Shown: positions 5,995 through 52,551 of the stretch, one piece after another
Layout: the number at the start of each line of letters is the position of its first letter
Position numbering within the stretch: position 1 is the stretch's first letter
Source of the DNA: Escherichia coli
Lineage (GTDB): Bacteria > Pseudomonadota > Gammaproteobacteria > Enterobacterales > Enterobacteriaceae
Reading direction: 5' to 3' (one strand)
Assembly (NCBI RefSeq): GCF_050920415.1
Contig: NZ_CP169309.1
Length of the DNA: 64,000 nucleotides
Position numbers and translations under genes: made by a program
The notes under the pieces: generated by a model
Seen by the model: only the letters and a program-made list of their open reading frames with translations
Told to the model about the DNA's origin: nothing
The model's database searches: none

Positions 5995-6864
<870 letters not shown>

Positions 6865-11450: not shown

Positions 11451-12971
11451 ATGGTCAGCTCAACGACTCCGTCTTCCGGGGAATACTTGTTGGAAATGAG
11501 CGGTATCAACAAGTCTTTTCCGGGTGTTAAGGCACTTGATAACGTTAATTTAAAAGTCCGGCCACATTCTATCCATGCATTAATGGGGGAAAACGGCGCA
11601 GGAAAATCAACATTATTAAAATGCCTGTTTGGTATTTATCAAAAAGACTCCGGCACCATTTTGTTCCAGGGTAAAGAGATCGATTTCCATTCTGCCAAAG
11701 AAGCACTGGAAAATGGTATTTCGATGGTACACCAGGAATTAAACCTGGTATTACAACGTTCGGTGATGGACAACATGTGGCTGGGGCGGTATCCCACCAA
11801 AGGCATGTTTGTCGATCAGGACAAAATGTACCGCGAAACCAAAGCGATTTTTGATGAGCTGGATATTGATATCGATCCGCGTGCGCGCGTCGGCACATTA
11901 TCCGTTTCGCAAATGCAGATGATCGAAATCGCCAAAGCGTTTTCCTATAACGCGAAAATTGTGATTATGGATGAACCGACATCTTCGTTAACTGAAAAAG
12001 AGGTCAATCATCTTTTCACTATTATTCGTAAATTAAAAGAGCGCGGCTGCGGTATTGTTTATATCTCGCATAAAATGGAAGAAATCTTCCAGTTATGTGA
12101 TGAAGTCACCGTATTGCGCGACGGTCAGTGGATCGCTACCGAACCGCTGGCAGGGCTAACGATGGACAAGATCATCGCCATGATGGTTGGACGCTCTCTT
12201 AACCAGCGTTTCCCTGACAAAGAAAACAAGCCGGGCGAAGTGATTCTGGAAGTGCGTAATCTGACGTCGCTGCGCCAGCCGTCGATTCGCGATGTCTCGT
12301 TTGATCTGCATAAAGGGGAGATCCTCGGTATTGCCGGTCTGGTGGGGGCGAAACGTACCGATATTGTTGAGACGTTATTTGGTATTCGCGAGAAATCGGC
12401 TGGCACCATTACGTTGCACGGTAAAAAGATCAATAACCATAACGCTAACGAAGCCATAAACCACGGATTTGCACTGGTAACTGAAGAGCGCCGCTCAACG
12501 GGAATTTATGCCTATCTGGATATTGGCTTTAACTCGTTAATTTCCAATATCCGCAACTACAAAAATAAAGTTGGCTTGCTGGATAACTCGCGGATGAAAA
12601 GCGATACCCAGTGGGTAATTGATTCGATGCGGGTAAAAACGCCGGGACATCGTACGCAAATTGGTTCACTCTCCGGCGGTAATCAGCAAAAGGTAATTAT
12701 TGGGCGCTGGCTGCTAACGCAACCAGAAATATTAATGCTCGATGAACCAACGCGCGGTATTGATGTCGGAGCGAAGTTTGAAATTTATCAGTTAATTGCC
12801 GAACTGGCGAAGAAAGGCAAGGGGATTATTATTATTTCCTCCGAAATGCCAGAGTTGTTAGGGATAACAGACCGTATTCTGGTCATGAGCAATGGTCTCG
12901 TTTCCGGAATTGTCGATACAAAAACAACAACGCAAAACGAAATTCTGCGTCTTGCGTCTTTGCACCTTTAA
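11451..12971 (+). CDS. mglA: Galactose/methyl-galactoside ABC transporter ATP-binding protein (duplicated ABC domains), 506 aa
   Basis: Two Walker A motifs ('GENGAGKST' and second-domain equivalent), two LSGG signatures; sugar-ABC architecture. Confidence 0.95.
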
Positions 12972-21240: not shown

Positions 21241-22599
21241 ATGACTCAACGACGTGATTTACAAGCACTTATCGATGCCGCTCCGGTCGGCAAGATGCAG
21301 TGGCGCGTTATCATCTGCTGTTTTCTGGTGGTAATGCTCGATGGTTTTGACACCGCGGCTATCGGCTTTATCGCCCCTGATATTCGCACTCACTGGCAAC
21401 TCACCGCAGGCGATCTCGCCCCGCTTTTTGGTGCGGGTCTGCTGGGTTTAACGGCAGGCGCACTGCTTTGTGGCCCGTTGTCTGACCGCTTTGGCCGCAA
21501 ACGGGTGATAGAGCTATGCGTCTTTTTATTTGGCGCGTTAAGTCTCGCCTCTGCGTTTTCACCAGATCTGCAAACGCTGGTATTACTGCGTTTTCTCACC
21601 GGCCTGGGGCTTGGCGGGGCGATGCCGAACACCATCACCATGACCTCGGAATATCTGCCTGCCCGTCGCCGGGGCGCGCTGGTGACGCTGATGTTTTGCG
21701 GCTTTACGCTGGGTTCGGCGTTTGGCGGGATTGTCAGCGCACAGCTGGTGCCGGTGATTGGCTGGCACGGCATTCTGGTGTTGGGGGGCGTGTTACCGCT
21801 GATGCTGTTTGTCGCACTGCTGGTAGTTCTGCCGGAATCGCCACGCTGGCAGGTGCGCCGCCAGCTACCGCAGGCGGTGATTGCGAAAACCGTCAGCGCC
21901 ATCACCCGCGAGCGTTATGTCGATACCCACTTTTATCTCATTGAATCAGCCTCCGTTACAAAAGGCAGCATTCGTCAACTGTTTATGGGACGTCAGTTAC
22001 CCATTACGTTGATGCTTTGGGTGGTGTTCTTTATGAGCCTGCTGATTATTTACCTGCTCTCAAGCTGGATGCCAACGCTGTTGAACCATCGCGGCATAGA
22101 CCTGCAACACGCGTCCTGGGTCACCGCCGCGTTCCAGATTGGCGGTACGTTGGGCGCGCTGGCGCTGGGCGTGCTGATGGATAAGTTCAATCCTTTCCGC
22201 GTGCTGGCGCTGAGCTATGCCGTAGGCGCTGTATGCATCGTGATGATTGGCTTAAGCCAGGATGGATTATGGCTGATGGCGCTGGCGATTTTCGGCACCG
22301 GCATTGGCATTAGCGGATCTCAGGTGGGGTTGAACGCGTTGACCGCAACGCTCTACCCAACGCAAAGCCGCGCCACGGGCGTGAGCTGGTCAAACGCCGT
22401 AGGCCGCTGCGGCGCGATTGTCGGCTCGCTTTCTGGCGGCCTGATGATGGCGATGAATTTCTCTTTCGACACCCTGTTTTTCATTATCGCTGTGCCCGCG
22501 GCGATCAGTGCGGTGATGTTAAGCCTGCTGATCACCGTGGTTCGCCAGTCGACCTCTGTCCCTGACTCACTGCCTCGCGCAGGCGTTGTGAACGAATAA
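21241..22599 (+). CDS. mhbT: MFS aromatic-acid:H+ symporter (3-hydroxybenzoate transporter-like), 452 aa
   Basis: 12-TM MFS with 'GRKR' loop motif; first gene of catabolic operon. Confidence 0.75.
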
Positions 22600-22610
22600 G
22601 GAGCATCCTA

Positions 22611-23639
22611 ATGACTGATAACAATCAAAAAAGCCGCGAGCAATTTTATCAGCATATTTCCGGGCAAAACCTGACCCCGCTGTGGGAGTCACTGCACCAC
22701 CTGGTGCCGAAAACGCCCAACGCCAACTGTGCGCCAGCGTACTGGAATTATCAGGAGATCCGCCCGCTGCTGCTGGAGAGCGGCAGCCTGATTGGCGCGA
22801 AAGAAGCTGTGCGTCGTGTGCTGGTACTGGAAAACCCGGCGCTGCGCGGGCAGTCTTCCATTACCGCGACTTTATATGCCGGTTTGCAACTGATCATGCC
22901 GGGCGAAGTGGCACCGAGTCATCGTCATAACCAATCGGCGCTGCGTTTTATTGTTGAAGGCAAAGGGGCATTTACCGCCGTTGATGGCGAACGCACGCCA
23001 ATGAATGAGGGCGATTTTATCCTGACCCCACAATGGCGCTGGCACGATCATGGTAACCCTGGCGACGAACCGGTTATCTGGCTCGATGGACTGGATCTGC
23101 CATTAGTGAACACTCTGGGCTGCGGTTTTGCCGAAGATTACCCGGAAGAGCAACAACCGGTCACGCGTAAAGAGGGGGATTATCTGCCGCGTTATGCCGC
23201 CAATATGTTGCCGCTGCGCCATCAGACGGGGAACTCCTCACCGATCTTTAACTATCGTTATGACCGTAGCCGCGAAGTGCTGCACGATTTAACCCGCCTG
23301 GGCGATGCCGACGAGTGGGATGGCTACAAAATGCGCTACGTCAACCCGGTCACCGGCGGCTATCCGATGCCGTCGATGGGCGCTTTCCTGCAACTGCTAC
23401 CGAAAGGGTTCGCCTCCCGCGTGGCGCGTACCACTGACAGCACTATCTACCATGTGGTGGAAGGTAGCGGACAAGTCACCATCGGCAATGAAATCTTCAC
23501 CTTTAGTGCAAAAGATCTCTTTGTGGTGCCGACCTGGCACGGCGTGTCATTCCAGACTACGCAAGATACCGTTTTATTCAGTTTTTCGGACAGACCGGTA
23601 CAAGAAGCCCTGGGGCTGTTCCGCGAAGCGCGTTATTAA
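22611..23639 (+). CDS. mhbD: Gentisate 1,2-dioxygenase (bicupin), 342 aa
   Basis: Two cupin modules with His triad ('[14 protein letters not shown]', 'WRWHDHGN'); length typical of gentisate dioxygenases. Confidence 0.8.
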
Positions 23640-23654
23640 TTTGGGAGAGAGAAA

Positions 23655-24356
23655 ATGACTCAATATGTATTCGAACCACAAGCGCCCGTTACCGTACCGG
23701 TTGTTGGCAGTGATGAACAATTCCCCGTGCGCCGCGTTTACTGCGTCGGGCGTAACTATGCTGCCCACGCCCGCGAAATGGGCTTTGATCCGGATCGTGA
23801 ACCCCCCTTCTTCTTCTGCAAACCAGCAGATGCCGTTGTTCCGGTCGCCGCTGGCGAAACGCTGGCGCTGCCGTATCCGGCGCAGACCGATAACTATCAT
23901 TACGAAATTGAACTGGTGGTGGCGATTGGTAAAAAGGGCAGCGATATCCCACTGGAAAAGGCCCATGAATATGTCTGGGGTTATGCCACAGGCCTTGATA
24001 TGACTCGCCGTGACCGTCAAATGGAAATGCGTCAGATGGGCCGCCCGTGGGAAATCGGCAAAGCATTTGATCTCTCGGCCCCCATCGCACCGCTGCACAA
24101 AGCCAGCGAAACTGGCGGTATTGATAACGCACCTATCTGGTTACAGGTTAACGGTGAAGATCACCAGCGCAGCGATATTCGCCATCTCATCTGGTCGGTG
24201 AATGAAACCATCAGCTACCTGTCAGGCTTCTTTGAACTGCAACCGGGCGATCTAATCTTTACCGGTACGCCGGAAGGGGTTGGCCCAGTAGTCAAAGGTG
24301 ATGTGATCACGGGCAACGTCGAGGGCTTAACCCCTATCGCGGTGAAGATCGTCTGA
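23655..24356 (+). CDS. mhbH: Fumarylpyruvate hydrolase (FAH family), 233 aa
   Basis: FAH-fold motifs ('[13 protein letters not shown]', 'GTPEGVGPV'). Confidence 0.75.
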
Positions 24357-24361
24357 GGTGC

Positions 24362-25009
24362 ATGATGAAGCTGTACAGTTTTTTTAATAGTTCAGCATCG
24401 TACCGGGTACGCATTGCGCTGGCGCTGAAAGGCATTAATTACCAGACCGAAGGGGTGAATATCCGTATTGGTCGGCAAAATGAACTGGCCTATCGGCGGA
24501 TGAATCCTGTCGGGCTGGTGCCGACGCTGCTGACTGACGAGGGCGAGTCACTCGGTCAGTCGCTGGCGATTATTGACTGGCTGGATCGTCACTACCCGCA
24601 AGTTCCGCTGGTGCCGCAGGAAGAACCGGCCCGCAATAAGGTGCTGGGAATTGTCTATGCCATCGCTTGTGATATTCATCCATTGAATAACCTGCGCGTG
24701 CTGCGCTATCTGACCGAAGAGCTGAACGTCAGTGAAGAAGAGAAAAAACGCTGGTATGCGCACTGGATCCAGCAAGGGTTAAGCGCGGTGGAACAGCTAC
24801 TGCGCCAGAGCCAGTCGGGGCAATTTTGTGTGGGTGAGACGCCGACGCTGGCAGACTGCTGCCTTGTTCCGCAGTGGGCGAACGCGCTACGTATGAACTG
24901 CGATCTGAGAGGATATCCGCGCTGCAAAGCGGTGTACGACGCCTGCACACAACTGCCAGCGTTCATTGCCGCAGCGCCAGAAAATCAACAAGATAAAATT
25001 TCAGCCTGA
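24362..25009 (+). CDS. mhbI: Maleylpyruvate isomerase (zeta-class glutathione S-transferase), 215 aa
   Basis: GST N-terminal thioredoxin fold ('KLYSFFNSSASYRVRIAL') and GST-zeta-like C-terminus; sits between hydrolase and hydroxylase. Confidence 0.7.
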   Translation: MMKLYSFFNSSASYRVRIALALKGINYQTEGVNIRIGRQNELAYRRMNPVGLVPTLLTDEGESLGQSLAIIDWLDRHYPQVPLVPQEEPARNKVLGIVYAIACDIHPLNNLRVLRYLTEELNVSEEEKKRWYAHWIQQGLSAVEQLLRQSQSGQFCVGETPTLADCCLVPQWANALRMNCDLRGYPRCKAVYDACTQLPAFIAAAPENQQDKISA

Positions 25010-25023
25010 CCAGGAGAACCATA

Positions 25024-26217
25024 ATGACTAAAGTGACACGCGCAGTAATTGTGGGAGGCGGGATCGGCGGTGCGGCAACTGCGCTGTCACTGGCCCGCCA
25101 GGGGATCAAAGTGGTGCTGCTGGAAAAGGCGCATGAGATCGGTGAGATTGGCGCAGGTATCCAGTTGGGGCCAAATGCGTTTTCGGCGTTGGATAGTCTT
25201 GGTGTTGGCGAAATCGCCCGCCAACGTGCGGTATTCACCGATCACATCACCATGATGGACGCGGTGAACGCCGAAGAAGTGGTGCGTATTGAAACCGGGC
25301 AGGCCTTTCGTGACCATTTCGGCGGCCCTTACGCGGTGATCCACCGCGTTGATATTCATGCCTCGGTGTGGGAAGCGGTACTGACGCATCCGGACGTGGA
25401 ATATCACACCTCCACCAACGTCGTGGATATTCGCGAGACGGAAGACGATGTCACCGTGTTTGACGATCGCGGCAATAGCTGGAGCGGCGATATTCTGATT
25501 GGCTGTGACGGTGTGAAATCAGTGGTGCGCCAGAGCTTATTGGGCGATGCGCCGCGTGTCACCGGACATGTGGTCTACCGTGCGGTTATCGATTGTGCCG
25601 ATATGCCGGAAGATTTGCGCATTAACGCACCGGTACTGTGGGCGGGGCCGCATTGTCACCTGGTGCATTACCCTTTGCGCGGCGGCAAGCAGTATAACCT
25701 GGTGGTAACATTCCACAGCCGCCAGCAGGAAGAGTGGGGCGTGAAGGATGGCAGTAAAGAGGAAGTGCTCTCTTACTTTGAAGGGATTCACCCCCGTCCG
25801 CGCCAGATGTTGGATAAACCGACTTCATGGCGACGCTGGTCAACCGCTGACCGTGAACCGGTGGCGAAGTGGGGAACGAAGCGCATAACGCTTGTGGGCG
25901 ATGCGGCCCATCCGGTGGCGCAATATATGGCGCAGGGAGCCTGTATGGCGCTGGAAGATGCAGTAACGCTGGGTAAGGCGCTGGCGCAGTGTGAGGGTGA
26001 TGCGGCGCAAGCCTTTGCGCTGTATGAGTCGGTACGAATTCCGCGCACCGCGCGCATCGTCTGGTCGACCCGTGAAATGGGGCGGGTTTATCACGCCGCA
26101 GGGGTAGAACGTCAGGTACGTAACCTGCTGTGGAAAGGGAAATCGCAGGCAGAGTTTTATCGCGGCATGGAGTGGCTGTACGGCTGGAAAGAAGATAACT
26201 GTTTGCAACCACGCTGA
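25024..26217 (+). CDS. mhbM: 3-Hydroxybenzoate 6-hydroxylase (FAD-dependent aromatic monooxygenase, salicylate hydroxylase-like), 397 aa
   Basis: FAD motifs 'VIVGGGIGGAATAL' and 'GDAAHPVAQYMAQGACMALEDA'. Confidence 0.8.
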   Translation: MTKVTRAVIVGGGIGGAATALSLARQGIKVVLLEKAHEIGEIGAGIQLGPNAFSALDSLGVGEIARQRAVFTDHITMMDAVNAEEVVRIETGQAFRDHFGGPYAVIHRVDIHASVWEAVLTHPDVEYHTSTNVVDIRETEDDVTVFDDRGNSWSGDILIGCDGVKSVVRQSLLGDAPRVTGHVVYRAVIDCADMPEDLRINAPVLWAGPHCHLVHYPLRGGKQYNLVVTFHSRQQEEWGVKDGSKEEVLSYFEGIHPRPRQMLDKPTSWRRWSTADREPVAKWGTKRITLVGDAAHPVAQYMAQGACMALEDAVTLGKALAQCEGDAAQAFALYESVRIPRTARIVWSTREMGRVYHAAGVERQVRNLLWKGKSQAEFYRGMEWLYGWKEDNCLQPR

Positions 26218-26375
26218 GCACTTCTTCACCCAATCAGGCGCACGGGCGGTCCCCTCGCCCCTTCGGGAGAGGGTTAGGGTGAGGGAAAAATCTTGCCCGA
26301 ATTAATCAGTAAGTCAGTTTGTCTGCAAACACCAGAGGCGCTAACATAGCGCCTCATTTTTTTGCGGGTGATGAT

Positions 26376-27323
26376 ATGCGTGTGTTACTGGCGCCGATGG
26401 AGGGTGTACTCGACTCTCTGGTGCGTGAATTGCTGACCGAAGTTAACGACTACGATCTGTGCATCACCGAGTTTGTCCGCGTGGTGGATCAACTGCTGCC
26501 GGTAAAAGTTTTTCATCGCATTTGCCCGGAGCTACAAAACGCCAGCCGAACGCCATCCGGTACGCTGGTGCGCGTGCAATTGCTGGGTCAGTTCCCACAA
26601 TGGCTGGCAGAGAACGCCGCCCGTGCGGTGGAGTTAGGTTCCTGGGGTGTGGATCTTAATTGCGGCTGTCCGTCGAAAACGGTTAACGGTAGCGGCGGCG
26701 GGGCGACACTACTCAAAGATCCTGAACTCATCTACCAGGGTGCAAAAGCGATGCGTGAAGCTGTACCGGCGCATTTGCCCGTCAGTGTGAAAGTGCGTCT
26801 GGGCTGGGACAGCGGTGAGAAGAAATTTGAAATCGCCGATGCGGTTCAACAGGCTGGCGCTACGGAGTTGGTGGTGCATGGGCGGACAAAAGAGCAGGGG
26901 TACCGCGCGGAGCATATTGACTGGCAGGCGATTGGCGAGATTCGCCAACGGCTGAATATTCCGGTGATTGCCAACGGTGAAATCTGGGACTGGCAGAGCG
27001 CGCAACAGTGTATGGCGATCAGCGGCTGTGACGCGGTGATGATTGGTCGCGGAGCGCTCAATATTCCCAATCTGAGCCGAGTGGTAAAATATAACGAACC
27101 GCGAATGCCGTGGCCGGAGGTGGTTGCTTTGCTACAAAAATATACCCGTCTGGAAAAGCAGGGCGATACCGGGTTATATCACGTTGCGCGGATTAAACAG
27201 TGGTTGAGTTATTTGCGTAAAGAATACGATGAAGCAACAGAATTATTTCAGCATGTTCGGGTGTTGAATAATTCCCCTGATATTGCAAGGGCTATTCAGA
27301 CCATTGATATCGAGAAACTCTAA
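26376..27323 (+). CDS. dusC: tRNA-dihydrouridine synthase C, ~315 aa
   Basis: Dus family TIM-barrel sequence; start chosen at [10 protein letters not shown] (ORF track allows 19 extra N-terminal codons). Confidence 0.85.
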
Positions 27324-27379
27324 GAAACCATAGTGATGTTTTTTGACAATGTGTTAGCTCTTTATCAATAGGCCGCACG

Positions 27380-27610
27380 GTTGTTTGGTGGCGTCAAAAT
27401 CGCCGAGGCGTTCCCTGAAGGCCGGGGCAGCCCACATGGATGTGGGCTGAGGGCGCGTTTTACAGGGATGTTACCTCGCGCCCGACCCGGTAGCCGTAAG
27501 GGATAAGCCGAGGGCACCGCGCAGCGGCGATTTTGTTCGCCAGAGCCCGGGGGTGCAGGGGGCGGCGGCGACTGGTCGCCCCCTGCGCGCTCCTTGCGCT
27601 AGTGATTATA
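27380..27610. other. GC-rich, highly structured intergenic element of unknown identity (multiple hairpins)
   Basis: Several strong inverted repeats (gcagcccacatggatgtgggctg; gggcgcg-N19-cgcgccc; gggggcggcggcgactggtcgccccc) read in sequence; no convincing ORF. Confidence 0.3.
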
Positions 27611-27695
27611 TGAAGCAATGTACATGACAGGAGCGCAACAGGATGAGAGACTGAAATATTCTCGTTATTTTCGGATCTGATGACGTTAATTAATT

Positions 27696-27779
27696 TTAAA
27701 ATATCATCTTAAATACGCCAGTCACCACCAGTAGTCCAATCAGGAAAATAATCAATACAGCCCAGAGTATAATTTTCAT
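27696..27779 (-). CDS. yohP: Small single-TM membrane protein, 27 aa (MKIILWAVLIIFLIGLLVVTGVFKMIF)
   Basis: Not in supplied ORF track (below length cutoff); translated by hand. Sequence and position between dusC and mdtQ match the known E. coli small protein YohP as I recall it. Confidence 0.65.
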   Translation of the reverse strand: MKIILWAVLIIFLIGLLVVTGVFKMIF

Positions 27780-28002
27780 TGGCGTTCCTTTATTTGTGAG
27801 TGTCGAATAAGTATAGGAAAAAACGAAGCCCTTTGCCGTTACTCATAAGTGATTAAGATAAATCGGAGAATATCATTCACTTACTGTATATTTTTCTGAA
27901 TATGTCGTTTTATTGCCACTGATGTATTGCCACGCGAAACTAAAAAATATATTGCATCACACGGTAATCTCCGCGCACCTTTTCTTACCTGACTATTCCT
28001 CC

Positions 28003-29439
28003 ATGAATCGTGATTCCTTTTACCCAGCCATCGCCTGTTTTCCTCTGTTACTGATGCTGGCCGGGTGTGCGCCTATGCATGAAACCCGCCAGGCGTTAAG
28101 CCAGCAAACACCCGCTGCGCAAGTTGACACCGCATTACCTACGGCGCTGAAAAATGGTTGGCCAGACAGCCAATGGTGGCTGGAGTATCACGATAATCAA
28201 CTCACTTCATTAATTAACTATGCACTGCAGAATGCACCGGATATGCAGGTGGCTGAACAGCGCATTCAGCTGGCTGAAGCCCAGGCGAAGGCAGTTGCCA
28301 CTCAGGATGGCCCTCAGATCGATTTTTCTGCGGATATGGAGCGGCAAAAAATGTCGGCAGAAGGGCTAATGGGGCCGTTTGCTCTGAACGATCCTGCCGC
28401 AGGTACGACCGGTCCGTGGTACACCAATGGTACTTTTGGCTTAACGGCGGGCTGGCATCTTGATATTTGGGGAAAGAATCGGGCGGAGGTTACTGCTCGC
28501 CTGGGTACAGTTAAAGCACGGGCGGCGGAACGCGAGCAAACCCGCCAATTGCTGGCTGGCAGCGTTGCCCGCCTTTACTGGGAGTGGCAAACCCAGGCAG
28601 CGTTAAACACTGTTTTGCAGCAAATCGAAAAAGAGCAGAACACCATTATCGCGACCGATCGCCAGCTATACCAGAACGGGATTACTTCTTCAGTTGAAGG
28701 TGTGGAAACCGATATTAATGCCAGCAAGACCCGGCAGCAGCTCAACGATGTCGTGGGAAAAATGAAAATTATTGAGGCACGGTTAAGCGCACTTACAAAT
28801 CACCAGATAAAGTCATTGAAGCTTAAACCGGTTGAGTTGCCGAAAGTGGCAAGTCAGCTTCCTGATGAACTGGGGTATTCATTGCTGGCACGGCGGGCAG
28901 ATTTGCAGGCAGCGCATTGGTACGTTGAGTCATCGTTAAGCACCATTGATGCGGCAAAAGCGGCCTTTTATCCTGACATCAACCTGATGGCCTTCCTGCA
29001 ACAGGATGCGTTGCACTTAAGCGATTTGTTCCGTCATTCCGCGCAGCAAATGGGCGTTACGGCAGGCCTGACGCTACCCATTTTCGATAGTGGTCGTCTT
29101 AACGCCAACCTCGATATTGCAAAAGCCGAAAGCAACTTGTCTATCGCCAGCTACAACAAAGCGGTGGTTGAAGCGGTGAATGACGTGGCGCGGGCAGCCA
29201 GTCAGGTTCAGACGCTGGCGGAGAAAAACCAGCATCAGGCGCAAATTGAGCGCGATGCCTTGCGTGTGGTAGGTCTTGCGCAGGCCCGCTTTAACGCGGG
29301 TATCATTGCTGGTTCCCGCGTCAGCGAAGCCAGGATCCCGGCGCTGCGTGAGCGGGCCAATGGCCTGTTATTGTAAGGGCAGTGGCTGGATGCCTCCATT
29401 CAACTCACTGGTGCGTTGGGCGGGGGTTACAAACGCTGA
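28003..29439 (+). pseudogene. mdtQ: Outer-membrane efflux channel (OprM/NodT family lipoprotein); reading frame interrupted by in-frame TAA at 29374-29376
   Basis: Lipoprotein signal 'LLLMLAGC'; OMF family body. After the TAA stop the same frame continues 'GQWLDASIQLTGALGGGYKR*', which carries the family-typical ALGGG(Y/W) C-terminal motif, so the stop is premature. Confidence 0.6.
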
Positions 29440-31717: not shown

Positions 31718-31890
31718 AAAGTTCTTTTGTGTTGCATTGCTGGCGTAAATGTCAGCAATGCAGCATTTCCTCACGATTCTCCTTTGACGATCGCACTTTT
31801 TGCTCGTTATGATGGCGTCGCTAGCCTCAGTAAATCCTTACTCCGGCGGTGCGCAACCCGTGCGCGTGAACCACTATCTGAATGCTCATC

Positions 31891-32825: not shown

Positions 32826-33108
32826 GTAGGCAGGATAAGGCGTTTACGCCGCATCAGGCATTCGGAGCACAATGCCTGATGCGATGCTTGCGCATCTTAT
32901 CAGGCCTACAAACGTGACGCGTCCGTAGGCAGGATAAGGCGTTCACGCCGCATCCGGCATTCGGAGCACAATGCCTGATGCGATGCTTGCGCATCTTATC
33001 AGGCCTACAAACGTGACGCGTCCGTAGGCAGGATAAGGCGTTCACGCCGCATCCGGCATTCGGTGCACGATGCCTGATGCGATGCTTCTATTTGCATCAG
33101 GCATCCAG
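32826..33108. repeat. BIME: tandem array of REP units (three near-identical ~98-bp repeats) between pbpG and dld
   Basis: Unit 'ggcaggataaggcgttcacgccgcatccggcattcggagcacaatgcctgatgcgatgcttgcgcatcttatcaggcctacaaacgtgacgcgtccgta' recurs at ~32829, ~32927 and ~33025. Confidence 0.75.
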
Positions 33109-52467: not shown

Positions 52468-52551
52468 TAAAAAAACCTGCTGGTGAGGCAGGTTCTTTTA
52501 TTTACTACTTTCAGGCCTAACACCACGGCCTGTGCAACATCGTGTTCCAAC
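52468..52551 (-). ncRNA. Candidate cis-encoded/divergent antitoxin sRNA (OrzO-like) with sigma70-like promoter and intrinsic terminator
   Basis: Minus-strand -35 TTGCAA (52586-52581), 17-bp spacer, -10 TATAAT (52563-52558); minus-strand terminator stem aacctgc/gcaggtt (52474-52494) followed by a T-run on that strand. The 5' part of the predicted RNA is complementary to a 20-nt segment (52698-52717) in the leader of the downstream toxin ORF (19/20 match to plus-strand 52532-52551). Ends are estimates. Confidence 0.4.

Follow-up and report, generated by a model that had tools for sequence, protein, structure and literature searches.

What is the GC-rich, hairpin-dense DNA that lies just downstream of dusC in Escherichia coli, and why is it there? 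The question arose with a 64,000-nucleotide stretch of E. coli contig NZ_CP169309.1 (assembly GCF_050920415.1), hereafter the window, in which a preliminary description, made from the letters alone, had singled out positions 27380-27610 as an unexplained structured element. That adjective can be dropped, since the hairpin cluster is the already known repeat RRS-dusC, or TRIP1 of Rudd, for which a DNA-level effect on replication has been shown experimentally. We consider it very likely that the element is both this stalling repeat, with an effect known from strain K-12, and, as comparative data suggest, a decayed miniature inverted-repeat transposable element (MITE) with IS4-type ends and a fold of the TwoAYGGAY class.

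Identity with RRS-dusC and effect on replication

The locus is the spacer between dusC (+ strand, stop codon TAA at 27321-27323) and the small gene yohP (- strand), which are convergent, and the same dusC-yohP position is occupied in MG1655 and in the best-matching genome. The window copy is 98.28% identical over 291 nt to that of MG1655 (NC_000913.3; L008), whose curated record carries no annotation in the yohP-dusC spacer, and 93% identical over 272 nt to the MG1655 copy at lysO, with a near-identical core. Two nearly identical 222-bp GC-rich repeats, RRS-dusC and RRS-lysO, each located ca. 650 kb from dif, were described by Pham et al. (NAR 2024, PMC11194060); according to the RRS literature (Pham et al. 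NAR 2023, PMC10287960; Pham et al. NAR 2024; Kusi-Appauh et al. bioRxiv 2026), they had been catalogued as TRIP1 by Rudd in 1999, together with a third partial copy. The G-rich strand of the window copy is the coding strand of dusC, as in MG1655. GC skew of the + strand is +0.029 over the 64 kb and positive in six of eight sub-windows, indicating that the + strand corresponds to the leading-strand sequence, i.e. to the lagging-strand template; judging from this skew, the G-quadruplex (G4) strand would thus be the lagging-strand template, as in K-12. Because the locus, the 98.3% identity, the exact G4 motif and the orientation relative to replication all match, the element was identified as RRS-dusC.

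In work on K-12, the G4 strand acted in vitro as a block to Pol I, II and IV, and in vivo it slowed the progress of Pol III (PMC10287960, PMC11194060), with polymerase stops reported at the site of the G4 motif (PMC11194060). RecA and SSB accumulate on the lagging strand over a stretch of ca. 2 kb starting from RRS (PMC10287960, PMC11194060), and these peaks are lost upon RRS deletion and gained wherever RRS is inserted. The same papers report that both copies could not be removed without compensating amplification of a large region, and that deletion or inversion of RRS alters supercoiling genome-wide. In single-molecule experiments (2026 preprint of Kusi-Appauh et al.), gaps formed almost every time when the lagging template carried the G4 strand, and inversion of RRS made them less frequent. 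Given 98% identity and the same orientation, the mechanism demonstrated by others in K-12 may be transposed to the window copy. During fork passage, the G-rich strand, as lagging-strand template, would fold into very stable hairpins and a two-tetrad G-quadruplex at 27549-27568; lagging-strand synthesis would halt at the folded RRS and resume downstream, and the outcome would be a post-replication gap of up to ca. 2 kb, bound by SSB and RecA.

Stalling of the lagging strand and the ensuing gap are established for the K-12-like orientation. No bacterial sequence had been shown to programme post-replication gaps before RRS, which has been put forward as a model for the action of some eukaryotic G-quadruplexes. 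Why RRS exists is less settled than this effect, and the data below are consistent with descent from a non-autonomous IS4-type transposon.

Extent and fold of the element

Comparison with the alternative E. coli allele (see below) sets the limits of the whole element at about 27321-27693 (373 bp). The GC-rich segment reported at 27380-27610 is real and correctly placed, with 68.5% GC in the core (27385-27600) against 51% for the 64-kb window, but it is only part of a longer unit, composed as follows:

27321..27693, + strand: whole element, RRS-dusC with flanking remnants; the part in which the two E. coli dusC-yohP alleles diverge
27321..27384, + strand: left remnant and A/T-rich leader; starts at the dusC TAA, the leader (..GCTCTTTA..A.A.ACCGCAC..) being common to E. 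coli and Kluyvera paralogues
27385..27606, + strand: GC-rich RRS core, ca. 222 bp; 98.3% identity to MG1655 RRS-dusC and near-identical to the MG1655 lysO copy (PMC11194060)
27395..27535, + strand: TwoAYGGAY-like domain; closing stem 27395-27410 / 27520-27535 around two hairpins; RF01731, 30.2 bits
27428..27449, + strand: hairpin 1; stem CAGCCCAC / GTGGGCTG, loop ATGGAT at 27436-27441; perfect 10-nt arms by repeat finder
27451..27483, + strand: hairpin 2; outer stem GGGCGCG / CGCGCCC, inner pairs AC/GT, loop AGGGAT at 27464-27469
27549..27568, + strand: G-quadruplex motif GGGGGTGCAGGGGGCGGCGG; a single exact match in the window, 0 expected by chance; motif quoted in PMC11194060
27553..27590, + strand: GC-rich hairpin; arms 27555-27564 / 27577-27586, 100% complementary, the 5' arm holding most of the G4 motif
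27587..27636, + strand: terminal stem GCGCTCCT / AGGAGCGC; arms 27587-27594 / 27629-27636, variable A/T-rich loop of ca. 34 nt
27637..27693, + strand: tail with decayed right inverted end (..ATCTGATGACGTTAAT); aligns to the right end CTTAACTGACCAGCATTA of intact relatives, about half of the positions being kept

The presence of at least three strong stem-loops, as first described, is borne out both by the helices returned by the repeat finder and by the folding energies. As RNA, the + strand folds at -133.8 kcal/mol against -110.2 +/- 4.4 for dinucleotide shuffles (z = -5.33; 0 of 200 shuffles equal), while the - strand gives z = -3.65. As single-stranded DNA, the two strands are nearly equal, with -77.7 kcal/mol (z = -6.93) for the + strand and -72.6 kcal/mol (z = -6.83) for the - strand, which fits the reduced yet persistent gaps seen in the inverted orientation in the 2026 preprint. 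The 16-nt arms of the closing stem are 88% complementary, and the loop of the terminal stem varies in sequence among copies. The runs of the G4 motif are G5, G5, G2 and G2, short of the canonical four runs of at least three Gs, so that only a two-tetrad quadruplex is possible. The ccgagg motif that had been put forward as a short internal repeat does occur at 27403-27408 and 27508-27513, but these are its sole two occurrences and were not retained by the repeat finder; the meaningful internal repeat consists of the two hairpin loops, ACATGGATGT and ACAGGGATGT. As anticipated, no plausible coding sequence was found, the overlapping open reading frames (ORFs) being mechanical ones of 41-52 aa.

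Covariation across homologous copies, one of the checks proposed at the outset, was examined in an alignment of 44 copies with 67 consensus pairs, in which 98.9% of the cells are paired. Changes on both sides affect 23 of the 67 pairs, as compared with 14.1 +/- 1.7 in shuffles (none of 500 reaching 23) and 0-6 in controls with slid partners. Compensatory changes occur in 7 of the 12 pairs of the closing stem (helix 1) and in four pairs of the GC hairpin with the G4 motif (helix 10), in which the inverted allele L002 displays a double compensation with GGGGGAGGAGG paired to CCTCCCCC; the terminal stem (helix 11) shows a compensatory C-G to U-A change in Enterobacter copies. In hairpin 1 the loop core CA.GGATG is invariant and the closing A-U is replaced by G-C in 19 copies, and in hairpin 2 the core CA.GGA.G is invariant and an inner A-U becomes G-C in 16 copies. 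The fold is thus supported by covariation and under selection.

The same data bear on whether the spacer might hold an ordinary degenerate cluster of REP/BIME or ERIC palindromes, or the terminators of dusC and yohP. An intergenic, palindromic sequence at the 3' ends of two convergent genes would suit such a reading. Against it, naRNA4, the REP-derived Rfam family, has no match at the element and two units elsewhere in the window, and reading through the sequence revealed neither a REP nor an ERIC consensus. No intrinsic terminator (GC hairpin followed by a T-run) was found on either strand in 27100-28000, and the repeat unit of 270-370 bp has a specific, covarying multi-helix fold. These readings are ruled out on these grounds and we give them almost no weight. 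The initial view that the element is neither REP/BIME nor ERIC was therefore correct, and the ordinary degenerate REP cluster that had been set against it is not what lies here, naRNA4 matching elsewhere in the window only.

The TwoAYGGAY motif and a possible role as RNA

At Rfam gathering thresholds, nothing is detected at the locus; below them, RF01731 (TwoAYGGAY) matches the window copy with 30.2 bits (E = 0.01; gathering score 43), so that the Rfam scan suggested initially gave a sub-threshold lead. RF01731 does pass in relatives, with 44.6 bits for a Kluyvera copy (L089), 49.2 for the left units of L088, L025 and L089, and 53.1 for an Erwinia copy (L048). Elements of Kluyvera, Pseudocitrobacter and Erwinia indeed contain a second TwoAYGGAY unit on the opposite strand (49.2-53.1 bits). 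In the window copy, loop 1 (AUGGAU) fits AYGGAY and loop 2 (AGGGAU) has a G at the Y position. In the original TwoAYGGAY alignment (Weinberg et al. 2010), the Psychromonas members are multi-copy and consist of the domain followed by a strong hairpin, and CAGGGAC loops are included. Relatives that score above threshold place the element family in the orphan TwoAYGGAY class, which the window copy itself matches at a sub-threshold score. The RRS link provides the first experimentally documented phenotype for this motif, an orphan since 2010.

Rfam clan CL00106 holds TwoAYGGAY together with CsrB, and the two hairpins could, as RNA, be bound by one CsrA dimer. The element would then be transcribed by read-through from dusC or from a promoter of its own and would either sequester CsrA as a sponge or serve as a 3' untranslated region (UTR) under CsrA control. 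The loops ACAUGGAUGU and UACAGGGAUGU match the CsrA SELEX consensus RUACARGGAUGU (UUACAGGGAUGU at 11 of 12 positions and CCACAUGGAUGU at 9 of 12, by our own count), both GGA lie in loops, and their spacing of ca. 28 nt falls within the 10-63 nt bridging range. The loop cores CA.GGA.G are invariant while the stems covary; no terminator separates dusC from the element; and, in our own tally of the pair table, wobbles on the G-rich + strand amount to ca. 49 G-U cells vs ca. 9 A-C cells. On the other side, dusC and ybjE are marked "No" in all four Yes/No columns of the integrated table of Potts 2017, which we took as CLIP-seq/binding calls, and "NS" for expression, bearing in mind that intergenic peaks may escape gene assignment. 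Copies in tandem regions lie in sense in 22 cases vs 18 in antisense, the stem of hairpin 1 has 9 bp vs mostly 4 bp or fewer in the SELEX ligands, the long form of the element has its second unit on the opposite strand, and the promoter scan of the element found no conserved signal. A perfect TTGACA at 27343 was rejected as a promoter, having no usable -10 and being specific to the flank. Taken together, we regard a role as RNA as unlikely. The structured 3' UTR or small RNA offered in the preliminary description would account for the invariant loops but is short of direct support, and its riboswitch or leader option is not supported, in view of the position 3' of dusC and of the occurrence of the family in 0 of 72 divergent, promoter-bearing intergenic regions.

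In the long form, the left unit (5670-5733 in L088, with equivalents in L025 and L089) displays on the RRS strand a hairpin with the loop AUCCAU, the exact complement of the right-unit AUGGAU, so that a loop-loop interaction within one strand is conceivable. Copies of the Kluyvera cryocrescens type have GUCCU at the left-unit loop, and AGGGA(U/C) loops.

Distribution of the family

Recurrence of the element elsewhere, which the preliminary description proposed to look for by BLASTN, was confirmed both within E. coli and in further genera. By megablast, it was detected in 5425 of 5426 complete E. coli genomes, at a median of three places per genome. The second E. coli copy lies between lysO and aqpZ and a partial third between efeU and putP; the dusC and lysO cores of MG1655 are nearly identical and their flanks differ. 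By blastn, K. pneumoniae has it at 13 places in one chromosome, and K. aerogenes and Citrobacter have further copies. When the hairpin core served as an exact pattern for scanning species-representative genomes, 87 stretches were retrieved from Kluyvera, Enterobacter, Pseudocitrobacter, Klebsiella, Escherichia, Erwinia, Hafnia, Ewingella and Rahnella, with often several copies per genome and often at contig ends. A search of the phage collection with the element gave no match, and the one match to a viral contig (L009) was not informative.

Many Kluyvera contigs (ends of L011-L017 and L063-L066) terminate inside the element, and in a Kluyvera intermedia assembly (L066, ca. 6600-6700) the GC hairpin is precisely where Ns and a G/C homopolymer artefact appear; this fits the published resistance of RRS to standard sequencing. 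In some strains, an internal part of the element has been deleted between short direct repeats (E. coli TUM11352, L001 5960-6165; L075). In the TUM11352 lysO copy, both AYGGAY hairpins are gone and the arms of the closing stem and the G4 hairpin are kept; such natural variants could be used to map the part that causes gaps.

IS4-type ends and a probable origin as a miniature transposon

In Kluyvera and Pseudocitrobacter, a long form of 591-633 bp was found that comprises, in order, a left end, a GC-rich hairpin, a bottom-strand TwoAYGGAY unit, a leader and the RRS part. It is bounded by perfect or near-perfect 18-bp inverted ends, TAATGCTGGTCAGTTAAG, in L088 and L025 (633 bp each) and in the second L066 copy (591 bp). 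These ends are identical at 16 of 18 positions to each IS4 end of MG1655 (TAATGCCAGTCAGTTAAG and TAATGCCGATCAGTTAAG) and are directly abutted by direct repeats, namely CCCCCGTAAGGGA (13/13), CGCTGAG(G/T)GCG (11 nt, one mismatch) and CATCAG.C.GT (11 nt, two mismatches). IS4 in MG1655 is flanked by a 12-bp duplication, and the IS4 subgroup has been defined by ends of the type -AATR--------WTW and by repeats of 10-13 bp; the ends of the intact relatives fit both this signature and this repeat length. The L088 insertion and the second one of L066 have taken place in terminator hairpins, while the target of L025 was not readable as one.

When aligned to the long form, the E. coli copies appear as derivatives of it with internal deletions, decayed ends and no left unit. 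The alx-sstT copy keeps the right end at 13 of 18 positions and at the expected distance. In the window copy, the left inverted end retains ca. 8 of 18 matches (by eye), and the right boundary at 27693 falls within ca. 6 nt of the place of the right inverted end in intact relatives (hairpin +109 +18). With 373 bp, no transposase gene and many copies in many genera, the window copy also has the general properties of a MITE. The element would thus have originated as a non-autonomous IS4-ended transposon whose cargo was the covariation-supported fold of the TwoAYGGAY class, and the window would contain a fixed, decayed and internally deleted copy of it; the two K-12 copies may since have come to serve the host. 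Of the four options first offered, the decayed remnant of a mobile or repeat element is the best fit, the family being dispersed and having relatives with IS4-type inverted ends and direct repeats. This origin is probably new to the literature. The published RRS papers (2023, 2024 and the 2026 preprint) make no mention of transposons, MITEs or Rfam, nor were the covariation of the fold, the natural inverted allele described below or the multiple copies in other genera encountered in them, and a literature search for the end sequences TAATGCTGGTCAGTTAAG returned no paper.

Several points weigh against this interpretation. At both ends of the window copy, decay has left about half of the positions, with no detectable inverted repeats or target duplication. 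A clean empty site was sought at alx-sstT and dusC and none was found, both being allele replacements. No matching autonomous IS4-type element was identified, and the only insert found between the halves of the long form, where an autonomous version would have its gene, was an unrelated IS110-family insertion sequence (IS). The interior of the element has no similarity to IS4, the ends alone matching. The near-identical K-12 copies, together with the published conditional essentiality, suggest host-level selection beyond a purely selfish origin, and gap formation in the strain of the window is extrapolated from K-12.

Other mobile sequences were observed in association with the family. In Kluyvera genomosp. 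3 YDC799, two copies are interrupted at one and the same point of the hairpin-2 loop (..ACAGGGA|T..) by an IS of 1.38 kb (L031 723-2104 and L032 ca. 1522-2904). This IS, whose product is an RNA-guided transposase of the IS110 family (NF033542, 319.8 bits), appears to target the RRS repeat, as IS621 does REPs. Some copies (L082 ca. 640-1230, L090 ca. 11700-11760 and L031 ca. 2290-2340) have extra outer ends, CTGTCTCTTATACACAAATTCGTGG, which we take to be identical at 17 of 19 positions to the outside end of Tn5/IS50 and which would be a second IS4-family end type outside the IS4-type ends; those of L082 have an imperfect 9-bp flanking repeat (CTCCCCAAG / CTCCCATAG).

Alleles, orientation and host function

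When the window was compared with strain GW-AmxH19 (L002), homology ended at 27319 and resumed at 27694, the segment in between giving an inverted match of 272 bp with 87.5% identity. Two alleles of the dusC spacer (27320-27693) thus occur, in which the element points in opposite directions between unchanged flanking genes. Queries spanning the junctions detected the window orientation in 3409 and the inverted one in 2002 of the 5426 complete E. coli genomes, so that together ca. 5411 have a dusC copy; the inverted allele is that of strain 536 and O157:H7. A full extra copy occurs at alx-sstT in 1668 of the 5426 genomes and only remnants of it in K-12. On the K-12 map this locus presumably lies ca. 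1.6 Mb from dif, and the G strand of the full copy would there be the leading-strand template. The MG1655-type alx-sstT spacer (L099 710-1109) has no RRS core and contains right-end remnants, which make it a deletion or replacement derivative and not an empty site, as well as repeats of the CCCTCTCCC...GGGAGAGGG type, presumably Box C-like. In the putP-efeU spacer, the E. coli remnant and the Kluyvera copy have opposite orientations.

Across other loci and genera, the G strand was assigned to the lagging-template side in 27 of 74 copies with a proxy based on local GC skew, which is noisy and gives the correct sign at known E. coli loci. The rule that the G strand always lies on the lagging template finds no support in this count. 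The neighbouring-gene assignments used for the divergent and tandem regions above rest on an ORF heuristic that overlooks small genes such as yohP.

These observations bear on the published hypothesis that RRS is a purpose-built host element, a topological relief valve or a boundary marker of the Ter macrodomain, selected for its position (ca. 650 kb from dif) and for the G4 on the lagging template. It is compatible with a domesticated mobile element and not with a mere relic. It draws on the published impossibility of a double deletion without amplification, the shift in supercoiling after deletion or inversion and the symmetry of the copies about dif, to which can be added the dusC copy in about 5411 of 5426 genomes and the nearly identical MG1655 cores despite differing flanks. 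It is harder to reconcile with the inversion of the dusC copy in 2002 of the 5426 genomes at unchanged synteny, the full alx-sstT copy in 1668 with its G strand apparently on the leading-strand template, the proxy count of 27 in 74, the 13 places in K. pneumoniae and the transposon ends of intact relatives. We regard this hypothesis as a serious contender, though one that the balance of evidence leaves on the improbable side. A further and more tentative proposal is that RRS, TwoAYGGAY and the IS4-type MITE are one thing whose stalling fold might aid its own propagation, through the lagging-strand gap or a bound protein such as CsrA. E. coli would have inherited, and perhaps domesticated, two decayed copies, and the Ter-flanking layout would be an accident of this lineage; as a whole we deem this possible and rather doubtful.

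Should RRS be decayed miniature transposons of the IS4 type, conservation of their position and orientation by design would have to be tested afresh, given the many multi-copy genera in which no consistent orientation is seen with the GC-skew proxy and the 37% of complete E. coli genomes with an inverted dusC copy. Strains with the natural inverted allele offer ready-made test cases.

Other features of the window

Just upstream of dusC, at ca. 22000-26300 (e.g. ORFs 24362-25009 and 25024-26217), the window contains a gentisate / 3-hydroxybenzoate catabolic cluster with gtdA, a FAH-family hydrolase gene, maiA and a 3-hydroxybenzoate 6-monooxygenase gene. MG1655 has yohJ-yohK at this place, indicating a strain-variable islet beside RRS. 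On the other side, mdtQ (27913-29376) is an uninterrupted ORF of 487 aa; MG1655 has only a pseudogene of it, and in the closest genome its annotation is that of an incomplete gene. Rfam families above threshold elsewhere in the window are the OrzO-P antitoxin RNA (52469-52544, - strand), the Peptidase-S11 RNA motif (31806-31886, + strand) and the two naRNA4 (REP325) units (32829-32906 and 32928-33005, + strand).

Comparison with known systems

From published RRS the window copy departs in no essential respect; the unit given there is the 222-bp core, and the allele comparison made here defines a larger unit (27321-27693). The published view is that of a host element conserved in position, with no mention of transposon ends, Rfam motif or natural inverted allele. 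As a sequence whose G4 triggers gaps, RRS resembles the pilE G-quadruplex of Neisseria gonorrhoeae, according to the RRS authors the sole other bacterial example; it differs from it in having two G5 and two GG runs only, located inside a covariation-supported hairpin of a multi-helix element.

The likeness to the TwoAYGGAY motif resides in a long closing stem around two hairpins with AYGGAY-type loops. The window element departs from it by being GC-rich where the seeds are mostly AT-rich, by its second loop, AGGGAU, and by its score (30.2 vs 43); moreover, TwoAYGGAY was proposed as an RNA, whereas the sole demonstrated activity of the RRS element is at the DNA level. With CsrA-sequestering RNAs of the CsrB/RsmZ type, the element shares GGA hexaloop hairpins fitting the CsrA consensus, and the Rfam clan. 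CsrB is a single regulated gene with ca. 18-22 CsrA sites, whereas RRS is a dispersed repeat with two conserved sites.

Finally, the 18-bp ends, repeats of 11-13 bp, lack of transposase, high copy number and terminator-hairpin targets of the intact relatives recall IS4 and trans-mobilised MITEs. These relatives are set apart from IS4 by a large structured cargo of two inverted TwoAYGGAY units, each with its GC-rich hairpin; REPIN doublets offer a looser analogy.

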